Positions 1 through 15,000 of a stretch of DNA of 64,000 nt are shown piece after piece. Positions within the stretch are counted from its first letter, which is position 1, and each line of letters starts with the position of its first letter. Origin of the DNA: Escherichia coli O157:H7 (GTDB lineage Bacteria > Pseudomonadota > Gammaproteobacteria > Enterobacterales > Enterobacteriaceae); assembly GCF_013167455.1 (NCBI RefSeq), contig NZ_CP038328.1; one strand, given 5' to 3'. The position numbers are program-made.

Positions 1-3000
1 ACACCTTTACTGTTTTCACCAAACGGCTGCACTTGTTCGCTGTCCAGCATCGATTGCGTTTCCAGGAACCAGATGTCCTGGGTTTTAATTTTCGAACAGT
101 TCAGCACAATCGCGAGATCAATCCCGCCCTGCTCAATGCCCTGCGTCGCCAGATGCACCGCAGTCAGTGACGAGTTACTGGTGCAGTTCATGTTAGGCGG
201 CAAATACTGCAAGCGATATTTGCGCGCAAGATGGCTTGAAATCGTGTCCTGCGACATCTTTGAGGCATGCAGATTTGTGATGGATTGCGTTAAGTTGATA
301 TCTTCTACATCGTTGTAATTATAGAAAGATTTGTAATCCAGCCCGTCGATACGCGGCCCAATACCGGTCAGATAAACGCGAACGTTGCGCCCGGCCAGGC
401 AATGCTTATCCAGCATTGCCTGTTCCAGGGCTTCGTCGATCAACTGAGACAGCAGGTCCAATGCGCTATCGTCCACCTGTTTCAACGTCGCCACTGACGG
501 ATTACCCTTAAACCCGCATTTAATGGCTTCCTCGTTGGAGGTAAACCAGGGTGTACGCGCAACGCGTTTCCCCTGTTTCAGATTGTCAATTAACTGCGAA
601 CAGTCTTCGGCATACGGCATCCACACGCTGTAACCCGAAATAATAGCGGCATTGTCCACAGTCTTATCCCTTAATGACGAACGCGTAGTAGTTGCCGCCT
701 TCCGTTGCGCCAACAAGCAGGACATGGTTCAGCGCAAGTTTCATCGACTGGCGTACAAAATTCACACGCTCATCAAAGAATTCCACCGTATTTGGAATCG
801 CAGGTACTGCCTGCTTCTTAATGCAGTCAGTAATCACGGCGAGGTTAAGCAAACCAGCGGCAGAGGCGACAAAACCAAAGCAAGCGTTATAGTTCACTAC
901 CGGCACCGCCGGGTTTTGCGCGGCGAAGGTGTTGTAAATCGCGTCAATTTCGATACGAGAATGGTCATCGCTACCGTTGCTGGTACCACATACCAAATCA
1001 ATATCGCCAGCAGAGATGCCCGCATGCGTAAGGGCGCGTTCAATGGCCAGCGCCATCGACGCGGATTTTTCTTCCAACAATGAGGCGTCGAAGTAGGTAT
1101 TGCTGCATGACTTGCCGTAGCCCACCACTTCCGCGAGAACCTCAGCGCCACGCGCCACAGCCAACTGCGGATCTTCCAGCAGCAGCATGCAAGCCCCTTC
1201 GCCCGGAACATAACCTTGCGGATCTTTACCGTAAATCTGATAGTCGCTCGCCTCAGCCGTCATGTGGATCTTTTGTGTCACCGCATCCATATACAGCGAC
1301 ATCGACGGGAAGTACTCATCCGCGCCGCCAACCAATACCTGCGGTTGCAGGTTCTGCCGGACGATTTCATAACCGTAGGTCAGCGCGCCCAGCGCCGAGT
1401 TTTCCCCTGTCGCAAGCGTAGTGGTATACCCTTTGATCCCTTCAGAGATCCCGCAGAACGTTGGGATCGCATTCATCAGCGAGCCAGGAAATTCCGATGT
1501 ACGTACTTTGCGTGGATCGGGTTTCAGACTTTGCAGATATTTGTAGGTGGTTTCCTGCGGGCCGCGGGACATCCCCATGATCATGCCCAACTCATCGCCG
1601 TCGCGTTTGATTTTACGCTTCGCCTGTTCCAGCGCTTCGGTGAGTGCGATCAGGGCAAACGTGCCGCCACGGGTCGCTTTACGCTGATCGAAACGACGCA
1701 GGTGTTTACGCGGCTCCAGCCCGGAAACCTGGAACGTTTTAAAGTTGCTTTCCGTTTCCGGAAGCGTAGCTTCGCTGAAGCTGTACTCTTCATCAAACAG
1801 CTCGGCAAACTGGTTTGATTCATCCAGCACGGCCAGCAGCTCTTTGGCTTCTTCCAGTGTATCGTCCGGGAAGGTTACGCTACCCAGTTCAACGTGGTGG
1901 TCCTGCGCCCAGATGTTTTCCAGAACCTGGTTGAGCGTGTGGCCTATTGCGGATACTGCACCGACGCCCGAGATAGCCACACGCTTCGAATCATAGGTAC
2001 TGACCGGAATGGACGCGGGCTCCATGCTCAGGATCATGCAGCAGTTGTTGCCGCCGAAGGCATAGTTATTCTTCATGAAGATGTTCACTTTGCGATCGCG
2101 AAACTCATTCGGCACATAGTCCAGATCGCAATTCGGGCGTGCATGGCTGAAATTCAGCGTCGGCAGTACGCGGTTATCCGGAAGCGTTGCCAGACAGGCA
2201 ATCAGTTCCACAATCCCCGCTGCGCCAATGTTGTGGCCAAAGTAAGATTTGGTGGAGCTCACCAGCAGTTTATCGTGGTTAGCGAAGACCTTTTTCATTG
2301 CCAGCGTTTCAATACGGTCATTGGCTTCGGTACCCGTACCGTGCGCGTTGACGTAATCGATTTGCTCCGGGGTTACGCCCGCATTTGCCATTGCCTTGTT
2401 CATGACCTGCACCGCTCCGCTGGCACGCGGATCTGGCCCGGTTTCATGGAAAGCATCGCAGGAAGTGGCGTAAGAGAGGATCTCACCATAAATGGTCGCC
2501 CCGCGTGCTACGGCGTGCTCATACTCTTCCAGCACGATAGCGCCAGCGCCTTCACCAATCGACATACCGGACTGACCCGAGAACGGCGTACAAGTGTCTG
2601 GATGCATGACATTCAGTGCGTAGAATCCGGCAAAGGTCGGCAGATAGATGGGCTCAGTGCCCACTGCCAGCATGGTTTTGCTTTTACCATTCTGGATGTA
2701 GTCAAAGGCCATCCCCACGGCGTTCGGGCTGGCGGTACACGCGGTCGCCACCAGTTCAACCCCACCCTGTAAGCCCAGCAGCGTTGAAACGCTGGAACAA
2801 CAGGATGAGAATGCGCCGGAAAAGAGTGCTTTACGCAGCGAGAAATCTTCCATGCGCTGTTCGAACAGCGGCAAAAATGCCTCTGTTCCCGCGGACGAAA
2901 CACCGACGATCATGCCTGTTTCTTTGAGGGTGTCACGGCTATCCATCAGGCCGGCCTGACTCAGCGCATCTTTACCCACTTTGTAGGCCCAGAGCGCTGC

Positions 3001-12000: not shown

Positions 12001-15000
12001 TCCTTACTTAAATTTATCATCGCCACTAACGTTTTCCTTATTGATGCTATTCATTTTGGACATGCAGATCACTTTTGATGACTCACGGAATATCAGCAAA
12101 AATGATTGCGGCAAATCCTATCACCTGGCGCAATAAAAAATCACGAAAAATAAGCTGAAATAAGGACTCAAAAAAACAACTAAGAGTTATTGTTTTTTCA
12201 TCGAACGGCGAAGAACCTAACTTACTAAAACACAATAATTTAAAAGTCCCCCATCCTTGCTCCTTGGGTGAAAAAAATCCAATTTAGAGGACGTCTGAAA
12301 TGATATGTAGTTTTCTGTACGACATCATTTCAGACATCCGAATAAAACAACAAAGTTGGTGAGTTACAATTAATTTAAATCTTATTATTTGATTAACAAA
12401 GCATCATCATTACTGCATCTTATTCTCTATATCTTTTACGTCGGGGTAGATTCTTTATGGTCATTACGGGCAGGCGACATTTCATTATATTACCATTTGC
12501 ATTCACGCATGTAACCCTTAAGAGTTATATAAAAAGGAAAGAGTTCTTGCTCATGGTATTACTGAGATCGGATTAACCATGAGGTTAGCTATATAGAGAG
12601 CTTTGGCTTTGCGACAATTGGCTTAAGCAGCCACATTATGCCTGGCTTATCGTTGAAAGGGAGAAAGAAGAGCAAAACGGTTTGGCAAGCTTTCATTCCC
12701 ATCTAATAGCAATCACCGCTATACATCATCCCTTAACGTATTCTGGTCTTCATAAAAATGTTATTCTAAATTAAAGATTGTAATGATTTTAATAATGTTG
12801 TTATTATTTTGCAACAAATCAATCTAACACAATGATTATTCGCGATTTTTATTAGTTAAGAGGAATTGTTTTTACAGATTGCGCTACAATTCCGCTCATT
12901 TCTCACCACAGGAAAAGCTGAAGTAATCTTAAATGACTGTATTAACCCTTTTCTCCGCTGCCAGCACTCTTAAATATCGTTGTTTTATTCTTATAAAAAC
13001 GGCTTTTTTGACATAAAAAGTAATAGGTTCAGCCATTATGCAGAATTTACAACCTGAGAAAATCGCAAAAAACACTCTTATTCAGAATAAAACTCTGTTT
13101 ATCATCTTTCGGCAAGCATTAAATTACTATATTACCGTTCAACATTAGTATGAATGAAAATTCAATTGTTATACATGTGATGAATGTCATATATTGTGCT
13201 CATCGATTGCAGGACATCGCTATTCTTTTAGAGATACAGATATCACGCTGTTACTCTCTAATATAAAGAACACGCAAAGATTAGTTGTGTTACTGCAGTT
13301 GTTATGTCGCATATGGAATGCCCATTGTTACATCTTTAGTAAAAAGCTTTATTCACTTTCAAAATTTTTACTCCATGAAGATGGGCTGTTTTGCTGCAAG
13401 CAATTGAGTTAGTGCAATGAACAAGAACTTACTAACAAGGGTAATTATCATTTCGGATGATCTATATTACCTTCAGGGATTAAGTGCAAAACTAGGTCAC
13501 CATTATCGTTTTTTTATTGAGTGTTTTTTTTGTTCTCAAAATGCATGCAATAATGACCTAAGTACACTTAGATTTGACAACCGCTTTACAAAAAACGTAC
13601 TTCTTGTCGCAGTGGATGACGTAAGTATACTTGCAAAACTGCCAGATTTGGCCAGGTTTTTAATGATTGTTTCACTAAGAAAGATGAAAAACAGAAATAT
13701 CTTCTTTTCACTTTCAGAGCAAACATTCATTAGCCGATATATAAAATTGAATAAACTCATTACTTTGATTAAAAGTACTGATAAAGACCAGCAAGTCAGG
13801 CAGGTGACTCTGACAAGGTATGAGTGGGATATCTATTACTTATATTTTAAGATAGATAACAAAAGAATATTGCACACCCTGCTAAAAAAGGATGTCAAGT
13901 ATATTAGTCACTATAAAATATCAGTTTTTAACAAGTTTGAAATTGCTTGTGATAGTGATGGCTTTTACATTTTCAAGGCACTTATACAGTTAAGGAGATT
14001 TACCGGTTTTAAAAACGTCAGATTGTATCAATTGCATTAATTAACTCGTTCTATATTAACTCTAAATTTCAAGGATATTAATATGTTTTCTACTTTCAAA
14101 AAAGCAGCTCTGCTGGCAGCTATTGCATTACCTTTTTCAACTATGGCTGCGCCTACAGTCACTTTTCAGGGTGAAGTAACCGATCAGACCTGTTCCGTAA
14201 ATATCAACGGTCAAACCAATTCAGTAGTATTGATGCCGACCGTAGCCATGGCTGACTTCGGTGCAACTTTAGCTGATGGTCAGAGCGCAGGCCAGACGCC
14301 GTTTACGGTTTCTGTGTCTAACTGCCAGGCTCCAACTGGTGCAGATCAGGCAATCAACACCACCTTCCTGGGCTACGACGTTGACGCTAGCACGGGTGTT
14401 ATGGGAAACCGTGATACCAGCAGCGATGCGGCGAAAGGCTTTGGCATTCAGTTAATGGATTCCAGCACTTCTGGTAACCCAGTAACTCTGGCTGGCGCGA
14501 CTAACGTACCGGGTCTGACCCTGAAAGTTGGCGATACCGAAGCCAGCTACGACTTCGGTGCGCGTTACTTCGTTATCGATAGCGCTGCTGCCACTGCCGG
14601 TAAAATTACCGCTGTCGCAGAATACACCCTGAGCTACCTCTAATTAATCTACTGGCTGGCAGTAAATGCCAGCCAGTATTTCTTCGCACAATTAATAGTG
14701 ATTTTTCATGGACATGGAAAAGATAAGAATGAACATTTTTGCATATTTACTGGTACTTGTATTTTCCATGAGCATGAGCAGCAGCGCGTTTGCCAGCGTG
14801 GTAATGACCGGAACCCGTATTATTTTCCCTGGTGACGCAAAGGAAAAAACCATCCAGTTGCGAAATACCAGCGATCAGCCCTATATCATTAATATCCATG
14901 TTGAGGATGAACGTGGTTCTGACAAGAATGTACCGTTTATGCCAACCCCGCAGACATTTCGCATGGAAGCTGCCGCAGGTCAGGCGTTACGCCTGCTCTA

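Follow-up and report, generated by a model that had tools for sequence, protein, structure and literature searches.

The left end of a 64 000-nucleotide stretch of Escherichia coli O157:H7 DNA (contig NZ_CP038328.1, assembly GCF_013167455.1; the whole stretch is referred to below as the window) raises the question of why the genes for a two-partner secretion (TPS) pair, the exoprotein OtpA and its transporter OtpB, should be followed on the same strand by a dedicated set of genes for the synthesis of an acyl chain. The answer that we favour, with moderate confidence, is that OtpA and a lipid are co-produced and cooperate at the cell surface, without covalent attachment, as the products of a co-inherited module.

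The region in question (12.5 kb) is 100% identical to E. coli O157:H7 chromosomes and is carried by 383 of 5426 complete E. coli genomes, one of these copies being on a record annotated as a plasmid. It is part of O-island 47 (z1528-z1556) of E. coli O157:H7, an island present in essentially all O157:H7 strains. A scan of the window for open reading frames (ORFs) found all nine minus-strand ORFs of the initial annotation, and with the starts given by the NCBI annotation pipeline (PGAP) and by gene callers the gaps between the nine genes, from otpA onward, are 88, 15, 13, 3, 21, 35, 73 and 4 bp. The tight packing that had been claimed was therefore confirmed, with gaps of 3-88 bp; with its start at 6108 (the alternative being 6144), the ketoreductase (KR) gene does not overlap acpS. 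NCBIfam and Pfam searches, which were run on all 17 gene products of the unit described here, upheld every domain label of the nine. The edge of the window cuts the cluster; when the locus was extended to the left, in the PGAP annotation of a complete O157 genome, eight further co-directional genes were found, so that the whole unit comprises 17 genes over ~20.3 kb of one strand, of which the window holds the first half. The view that the TPS genes and those for an acyl carrier protein (ACP), a ketosynthase (KS), a KR, a dehydratase (DH) and a 4'-phosphopantetheinyl transferase (PPTase) form one packed co-directional unit is thus supported. In gene order, with positions outside the window given on the extended O157 locus (L001; window coordinate = L001 coordinate - 18000), the unit reads as follows.

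8214-12026, minus strand: otpA (tpsA), 1270 residues; PF05860, TIGR01901
6506-8125, minus strand: otpB (tpsB), 539 residues; POTRA_2, POTRA_3, ShlB
6122-6490, minus strand: acpS, AcpS-type PPTase, 122 residues; TIGR00516, PF01648
5347-6108, minus strand: FabG-like 3-oxoacyl-ACP reductase (KR); NF009466, TIGR01830
4795-5343, minus strand: FabZ/FabA-type hot-dog DH; PF07977 FabA
4492-4773, minus strand: dedicated ACP, 93 residues; PP-binding domain
3296-4456, minus strand: GcvT-like protein; GCV_T, GCV_T_C
664-3222, minus strand: fused KS/chain-length factor (CLF)-like protein, 852 residues; two ketoacyl-synthase N+C units
1-659, minus strand: KS2, the second, atypical KS-like gene, first 219 codons; 407 residues in full (L001:17436-18659)
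Left of the window, minus strand: orf317; no family
Left of the window, minus strand: LolD-like ATP-binding cassette (ABC) ATPase; matched by the LolD model
Left of the window, minus strand: orf218, periplasmic protein with a signal peptide; no family
Left of the window, minus strand: MacB/LolCE-like permease; MacB_PCD (PF12704) and FtsX (PF02687), matched by the lolCE model
Left of the window, minus strand: LolA-like periplasmic protein; PF17131, TP_0789-like
L001:11635-13023, minus strand: orf462, outer-membrane barrel with a signal peptide; no sequence family, assigned from its predicted structure
Left of the window, minus strand: FabD-like malonyl transferase; TIGR00128
Left of the window, minus strand: ycdU, membrane protein; overlaps the FabD-like gene by 4 bp

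The conservation of this layout was followed in a census with the GcvT-like protein as the marker, taking every locus in one genome per GTDB species; one match (L035) was excluded as spurious, since it spanned only 46 residues, and 33 real loci were kept. The 17 E. coli proteins were mapped onto these loci, and the ORFs were searched with iterated TPS-domain and OtpB profiles. The co-occurrence of tpsAB with the lipid genes, envisaged by the initial annotation, was positive: at 22 of the 33 species-representative loci, in about 14 named genera, tpsA-tpsB immediately preceded acpS within an unchanged 16-gene order, the proteins being 40-50% identical. The loci fall into the following types.

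Full type, 22 loci: Kosakonia, Enterobacter, Mixta, Izhakiella, Buttiauxella, Tenebrionibacter, Leclercia, Serratia, Silvania, Klebsiella, Rahnella, Pantoea, Acinetobacter and unclassified Enterobacteriaceae
tpsB only, 2 loci: two Kosakonia species, in which a ToxR-like regulator gene replaces tpsA
tpsA only, 4 loci: Proteus, Providencia and Morganella, with a TpsA of 830-846 residues encoded 64-78 bp ahead of acpS
No TPS gene, 2 loci: Serratia rubidaea and Enterobacteriaceae bacterium B14 (L030 and L033)
Too short to judge, 3 loci: L025, L026 and L027

The full tpsA-tpsB layout was also seen in genomes labelled Neisseria sp. and Aeromonas veronii, the hosts of the unit include Klebsiella oxytoca and K. 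aerogenes, and homologues of OtpB occurred in the same taxa as the matches to the GcvT-like protein, with 11 of them on longest contigs whose lengths were identical. Two loci (L010 and L011) have two tpsA genes each. Conservation extends to the leading position of tpsA in the operon, and the gap between tpsB and acpS has a median of 14 bp (25 loci). In pairwise comparisons over 23 loci, the minimum identity of OtpA and OtpB was 40-41%, and the identity matrices of the two proteins correlated with that of the KS-CLF protein (Pearson coefficients of 0.71 for OtpA and 0.79 for OtpB) to much the same degree as did those of undoubted members of the cluster (0.72 for orf317 and 0.63 for AcpS). By this measure, the divergence of the TPS proteins has run in parallel with that of the lipid enzymes. 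The sequences outside both ends of the cluster, by contrast, differ between genera. We could also reject the suggestion that the TPS genes simply happen to border on a cluster characterised in its own right, because the cluster is uncharacterised and the abutment is conserved.

The two TPS proteins are of a familiar kind. OtpA has a signal peptide, an N-terminal TPS domain, located at residues 64-161 by PF05860 and by TIGR01901 (77 bits against a cut-off of 29) and containing the NPNG motif of such domains ('ANPNGI' in the sequence), and a body of beta-helical repeats. Residues 903-1241 duplicate residues 525-863 (339 residues, 60% identity; window 8304-9320 and 9438-10454, respectively); most orthologues have ~850-890 residues, and the E. 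coli and Enterobacter forms 1270-1290. The otpB gene, 88 bp downstream of otpA and assigned by PGAP to the ShlB/FhaC/HecB family, encodes the Omp85-type outer-membrane transporter for OtpA, with orthologues in 24 related loci. At the sequence level the pair thus has both parts of a type Vb system, a TpsA with a TPS domain and an adjacent TpsB with POTRA and barrel regions. According to the accounts in PMC5422565 and bioRxiv 10.1101/2020.04.13.038984, the secretion of OtpA depends on OtpB; both cite Choi, Dawson & Bernstein 2007 and Choi & Bernstein 2009 as the OtpAB studies. The former, a 2017 review of TPS systems, names the pair OtpA/OtpB (ECs1282-1283), describes it as a model for sequential secretion and gives its function as 'unknown', and the latter mentions that the original authors of the OtpA work suspected an accessory role to the neighbouring fimbrial locus. 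As summarized there, the published work treats the pair as standing alone, whereas here the same genes are the head of a 17-gene unit.

Behind the pair lies a full set of dissociated type II fatty acid synthase/polyketide synthase (FAS/PKS) components, namely ACP, PPTase, malonyl transferase, KS, KR and DH. The acpS gene starts 15 bp past the otpB stop codon, and its product scored 79.8 bits with TIGR00516 (cut-off 59.8) and matched PF01648. The KR is a FabG-like short-chain dehydrogenase/reductase (225 bits with NF009466, cut-off 222; 238 bits with TIGR01830). The DH has a hot-dog fold with an HFxxxPxxPG motif and a weak ApeI-like Pfam match; FabZ models cover only its residues 17-80, and an insertion follows after about residue 80. 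The ACP carries a DSV serine motif and falls below the cut-off of every NCBIfam ACP model, and the FabD-like protein likewise scored 179 bits with TIGR00128, below the cut-off of 261. In the KS-CLF protein, the first unit has a Cys-His-His triad (ACTAS at 161, HGTGT at 294 and GHNIG at 329), and the second lacks the Cys (ATGEN at 604), the C-terminal half being distantly FabF-like. In the KS2 family, His294, Lys324 and a Tyr that replaces the second catalytic His are all invariant, and the active-site Cys varies, being Ser, Asn or Gly in distant loci; KS2 is probably not a standard decarboxylating ketosynthase. By hhalign, orf317 aligned weakly with the KS2 family (probability 19%, E 1.3e-3), the active-site regions being in register, and orf317 is possibly a degenerate thiolase-like protein. 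Sequence searches of the PDB with orf317 and orf462 gave no match. No enoyl-reductase domain was found among the 17 products with Pfam and NCBIfam, and the chain is therefore probably unsaturated or hydroxylated, although the housekeeping FabI could substitute.

The gene for the GcvT-like protein lies 35 bp past the ACP gene in E. coli, with ACP and KS genes as its neighbours, and was inside the lipid cluster at all 33 census loci and in four further genomes. The protein shares its fold and domains with GcvT, DmdA, LigM and the C-terminal domains of sarcosine and dimethylglycine oxidases, and its catalytic Asp and folate-site Glu and Arg align with those of the T. maritima T-protein. It scored 135.6 bits with the GcvT equivalog model against a cut-off of 300, and 97.6 against 236 with a second model. 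That the gene encodes the housekeeping T-protein was rejected, because the score is far below the cut-off and the genomic context is wrong; unlike GcvT, the protein forms a small separate family (333 clusters at E<=1e-10 among 5.8 billion proteins), has no gcvH/gcvP context and is encoded inside a lipid cluster. The enzyme is probably a tetrahydrofolate-dependent member of the aminomethyltransferase family, and we infer that it performs a folate-dependent one-carbon step on a carrier-bound intermediate.

The left-hand genes include a complete envelope-export set, consisting of an ABC ATPase, an FtsX/MacB-PCD permease and a LolA-fold carrier. The LolD-like ATPase scored 228 bits against an equivalog cut-off of 308, and the permease 93 bits with the lolCE model against 362; they are therefore relatives, not orthologues, of the Lol proteins. 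The likeness to the LolCDE-LolA and MacB (type VII) systems lies in the LolD-like ATPase, the permease with MacB and FtsX domains and the LolA-like periplasmic protein. In contrast to LolCDE-LolA, the otp cluster has one permease gene, the extra periplasmic protein orf218, and a barrel. The AlphaFold2 model of the latter, orf462, is a beta-barrel of the 18-strand type (predicted local distance difference test score, pLDDT, 82.8; predicted template modelling score, pTM, 0.79) and matches the OprD/Occ porins and the alginate exporter AlgE (E about 1e-11, template modelling scores of 0.45-0.55). An invariant Cys stands directly past the signal peptide of orf462 (C23) and a second one at C76; the residues preceding C23 are not a canonical lipobox, and the two could serve in a disulfide or an unusual lipid modification. 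The cargo of the ABC/LolA-like/barrel route is presumably a free lipid rather than a lipoprotein, and we infer that this is how the lipid made by the cluster is exported. The proposal of the initial annotation that a lipid is exported alongside the adhesin is accordingly unlikely, since the cluster has an ATPase, a permease, a LolA-like carrier and a barrel of its own.

The last gene, ycdU, encodes an all-helical membrane protein in its AlphaFold2 model (pLDDT 88.7), which a Foldseek search against PDB folds did not match to any structure (best E 0.39), giving no assignment as an acyltransferase or flippase. Its family is very small: 1.84 billion proteins include just 47 representatives. In Klebsiella oxytoca (41% identity) and Acinetobacter sp. 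ANC 4558 (38%), too, the gene directly after that for the malonyl transferase is a ycdU homologue, and Proteus has a weak one in this place. Since the gene keeps its position in other genera while the flanks beyond it differ, we take ycdU to belong to the unit. Beside ycdU in this O157 strain, left of the window, there is a separate mobile element (L001:1-9330) containing a tyrosine integrase, an IS1 remnant, YfjI and DUF3987 genes, an inovirus-type Gp2 and a 'TOTE conflict system' primase-domain gene. The end of the unit has also outlived the rest of it in other strains: 2667 of the 5426 E. coli genomes, K-12 among them, keep ycdU and a 3' stump of the FabD-like gene (L001:9697-11621), with at least two different break points, and the FabD-like gene is intact in only 389 genomes. 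Judged from these remnants, K-12 and many other strains carry a deletion scar of this operon. The K-12 stump is presumably the pseudogene ymdE, and the presence of ycdU and ymdE in K-12 is then explained as the stump of a deleted operon.

The known clusters that most resemble the lipid genes are those for aryl polyenes (APEs), such as the ape cluster of A. baumannii and O-island 138 / s2-ST11 of E. coli. These usually contain an aryl-starter adenylating enzyme, a thioesterase, a methyltransferase, a glycosyltransferase and a lysophospholipid acyltransferase. The otp cluster shares with them a KS with a CLF partner, an extra KS, FabG-like and hot-dog enzymes, a dedicated ACP, a LolA-like component and the absence of an enoyl reductase; a KS-CLF pair plus an extra KS is the arrangement outlined for APE clusters in the account given in PMC8358021. 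Against this, the otp cluster lacks the aryl-starter enzyme, thioesterase, methyltransferase, glycosyltransferase and lysophospholipid acyltransferase and has a single ACP, the Pfam and NCBIfam searches of the 17 products having found no AMP-binding, thioesterase, glycosyltransferase or PlsC-type domain, and it possesses a fused KS-CLF, a MacB/LolCDE-type exporter with a barrel, the GcvT-like protein, YcdU and the TPS pair. A true aryl-polyene cluster was therefore rejected, the genes that we take to define such clusters being absent. The initial annotation was right to say that this is neither a standard TPS nor an aryl-polyene layout: the operon has a TPS pair at its head and encodes a KS-CLF fusion, and it is without the APE genes.

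Taken together, we propose that a private type II FAS/PKS-like line, with its own ACP, AcpS, malonyl transferase, KS-CLF and second KS-like pair, would build an acyl chain, which would be processed by the KR and DH to an unsaturated or hydroxylated product and is probably modified by the folate-type GcvT-like enzyme. The MacB/LolCDE-type ABC transporter would extract the product from the inner membrane, the LolA-like protein would carry it through the periplasm, and it would pass through, or into, the outer membrane at the OprD/AlgE-like barrel. In parallel, OtpA would be exported by Sec and secreted by OtpB. Both products might then act jointly at the surface, for example in adhesion, biofilm formation or contact with a host or plant, with OtpA using the lipid as a non-covalent partner, anchor or cofactor. 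The established elements of this scheme are the gene content and domains, the operon-like packing, the joint inheritance and divergence of the TPS and lipid genes, the barrel fold of orf462 and, from the literature, the secretion of OtpA by OtpB; the conjectural ones are a common transcript, the identity of the lipid and its path out of the cell, and any physical or functional interaction between it and OtpA.

Several results weigh against this joint action. First, known relatives were not found for orf218 and YcdU (NCBIfam and Pfam, with Foldseek for YcdU), and there is no recognisable thioesterase or acyltransferase among the 17 products in the NCBIfam and Pfam searches. Second, Serratia rubidaea and Enterobacteriaceae bacterium B14 have the lipid cassette but no TPS gene, so that the TPS part is a recurrent accessory module rather than an obligatory one, and among the sampled species tpsA has been lost twice, in the two Kosakonia species that keep tpsB. 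Third, the Morganellaceae loci (L032:5298-7814, L028, L031 and L034) have no tpsB, no LolA-like gene and no barrel gene at the locus, and a simple picture in which both products go to the surface is therefore hard to fit to them. Fourth, next in relatedness to the Proteus TpsA come orphan TPS-domain genes, without TpsB or lipid genes within 10 kb, which are listed here.

L042:10001-12532: orphan TPS-domain gene, Serratia fonticola
L043:10001-14143: orphan TPS-domain gene

Finally, a single island that was transferred repeatedly can give rise to conserved synteny as well.

The leading alternative, which we consider possible if somewhat unlikely, is that the two halves are independent modules: an adhesin-like exoprotein and an aryl-polyene-like envelope lipid that share a promoter, travel as one transferred island and are maybe co-regulated, without interacting. 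The cassettes without TPS genes, the loss of tpsA from two Kosakonia species with the remainder of the cluster intact and the orphan relatives of TpsA elsewhere are all in its favour, as are the complete export route that the lipid has of its own, the study of OtpA secretion with OtpB alone in the literature as summarized in later papers, and a neighbourhood that holds a fimbrial operon, cyclic di-GMP enzymes and pgaABCD. What speaks against it is the conservation already described: the pairing persists down to about 40% protein identity, the identities following the same pattern as those of the lipid enzymes; the spacing of tpsB and acpS is held at ~14 bp; and the flanks past both ends differ between genera. 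Neutral hitchhiking over such a distance would also be expected to break the pairing more often than at 4 of the 30 assessable loci.

The Morganellaceae bear on this from the other side as well. Their version of the cluster is distant, the GcvT-like protein being ~40% identical, and a TPS-domain gene still heads it, which is a further argument against independence; this tpsA is intact in at least four species across three genera. Outside the Morganellaceae, the Proteus TpsA was matched best by an OtpA orthologue encoded in a lipid cluster of Enterobacter, and the C-terminal end ...G-x-(I/V)VG is shared by the Morganellaceae TpsA and OtpA groups. Given the shared C-terminus and OtpA as the best outside match, the association of TPS and lipid genes probably predates the split of the two subfamilies. 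In the B14 locus that has no TPS gene (L033:2055-7445), the place immediately upstream of acpS is taken, on the same strand, by genes for an Lpf-like usher, an adhesin, a subunit and an RcsB-like regulator. The head of the lipid cassette is thus a recurrent site of surface-adhesin genes, whatever their kind.

A closer bond than joint action at the surface is conceivable, in which OtpA-type exoproteins would be dedicated partners of a private polyketide-like lipid, either being covalently lipidated by it or serving as its extracellular carrier or presenter; we think this unlikely. Its covalent form, by analogy with toxin acylation, would have OtpA lipidated with a chain from the dedicated ACP, the lipid anchoring or activating the exoprotein. 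In the HlyC/HlyA, CyaC/CyaA and cdiC systems, too, a large secreted protein is encoded beside acyl-carrier chemistry, and cdiC, a gene of the toxin-acyltransferase family inside the TPS cdiBCAI operons (PMC5422565), is a precedent. Such a role fits the presence, immediately after the TPS genes, of an ACP and a PPTase that belong to the cluster itself; the lack of a recognisable thioesterase or lipid acyltransferase leaves the acceptor of the chain open, orf317, orf218 and YcdU could hide a transferase, and the C-terminal end of the OtpA family is conserved (...G-x-(I/V)VG(L/M) in OtpA and its orthologues). However, the HlyC, CyaC and CdiC systems encode the acyltransferase and borrow housekeeping acyl-ACP, whereas the otp cluster encodes an ACP and synthase and no such acyltransferase: no TAAT-family/HlyC/CdiC (PF02794), Lgt/Lnt or other acyltransferase domain was found in the 17 products with Pfam and NCBIfam. 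The key part of the analogy drawn in the initial annotation is thus absent. The ABC transporter, LolA-like carrier and barrel argue instead for a free lipid as cargo, the TpsA-less cassettes show that the chain has another destination, and there is no conserved Cys in the OtpA family, several orthologues, including E. coli OtpA, having no Cys at all. We therefore rate covalent lipidation as quite improbable. The remaining form would make OtpA, as a secreted or periplasm-spanning beta-helix, the acceptor, shuttle or presenter that conveys the lipid outward from the barrel or outer membrane, or on to a target cell. It could draw on TpsA being the sole TPS component kept in both deep subfamilies, with a conserved place as the first gene and, in the Morganellaceae, intact although TpsB, the LolA-like protein and the barrel are absent, but it is purely conjectural, with no known lipid-binding domain in the OtpA sequence, no precedent among TpsA proteins to our knowledge and cassettes that exist without TPS genes, and we regard it as very improbable.

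Parts of this locus have been noticed before. Reportedly, the 2001 genome paper already described the island as encoding an adhesin and a system for making polyketides or fatty acids. In print, attention was drawn in 2006 to the 'operon-like' lipid genes that follow otpAB, and a pangenome paper in 2022 treated the region as synteny cluster s1-ST11, with 16 genes over 19 kb, and reported a rule-based aryl-polyene-type call by antiSMASH and partial matches in Enterobacter (PMC9205054); reviews of 2021 and 2024 mention, for O-island 47, only the regulator GrvA. Our literature searches found no functional study of the lipid genes, nor, judging the OtpAB work by its summaries in later papers, any treatment of the conservation of the 15 downstream genes with otpAB. 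The initial description of the system as uncharacterised therefore holds for the function of the lipid genes but not for the locus, which is O-island 47, with a known OtpAB pair and lipid genes that were commented upon in 2006 and 2022. What is new here is the conserved coupling of TPS and lipid genes, the full 17-gene extent and the K-12 relic of a locus that was known but functionally blank.

The surroundings of the unit were examined for signals of its expression. Ahead of otpA lies the following feature.

12027-13416, no strand: intergenic region of 1.39 kb, AT-rich (GC ~0.33, against ~0.50 in genes)

This region separates otpA from the divergent fimbrial operon; it contains no ORF of >=90 residues and no Rfam family, and promoter-like hexamers at 12763-13154 on the minus strand were not enriched over shuffled sequences. 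It is presumed to be the promoter or regulatory region of the operon, and could be a silenced or shared one. The 17 genes would share a single transcript; the promoter and terminator scan gave counts equal to those of the shuffles and so says nothing for or against this, and no terminator was predicted in the otpA-otpB or otpB-acpS gap. An Rfam scan of positions 1-14000 at E<=1 returned one chance miRNA match and no riboswitch or known leader RNA.

The wider neighbourhood is rich in surface and biofilm genes, including the chaperone-usher fimbrial operon (window 13417-20041, divergent from otpA in E. coli), cyclic di-GMP enzymes and pgaABCD. The gene for GrvA, the ToxR/MarT-like regulator of O-island 47, lies with the next small gene (163 residues) at window 21657-22965, and full-length homologues of both (24-28% identity) stand immediately next to the cluster, at its upstream end, in Buttiauxella and in two species of Kosakonia; Rahnella bruchi has a partial GrvA-like match only. 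The coordinates of the matches are L009:1017-2343, L007:4311-5649, L008:4316-5690 and L022:1512-2396. Comparison of these positions suggests that GrvA and the 163-residue protein may be a regulator pair of the otp-lipid cluster itself.

The 15 genes behind otpAB in this O-island 47 unit are without a known product or role, and hosts that span Enterobacter, Klebsiella, Kosakonia, Serratia, Rahnella, Pantoea, Proteus, Providencia and Morganella make the unit relevant to both clinical and plant-associated bacteria. If the modules are independent, the locus is an ordinary adhesin beside an uncharacterised APE-like lipid cluster. If OtpA is a dedicated partner of the lipid, this would be the first TPS system with its own line of lipid biosynthesis and export, and ycdU and ymdE would be its relics. 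If, as we favour, OtpA and the lipid act together, OtpA would gain a function and type V secretion a new accessory module, and the lipid would represent a family of envelope lipids distinct from the aryl polyenes, served by a folate-type enzyme of an unusual sort and by a complete export route across the envelope.

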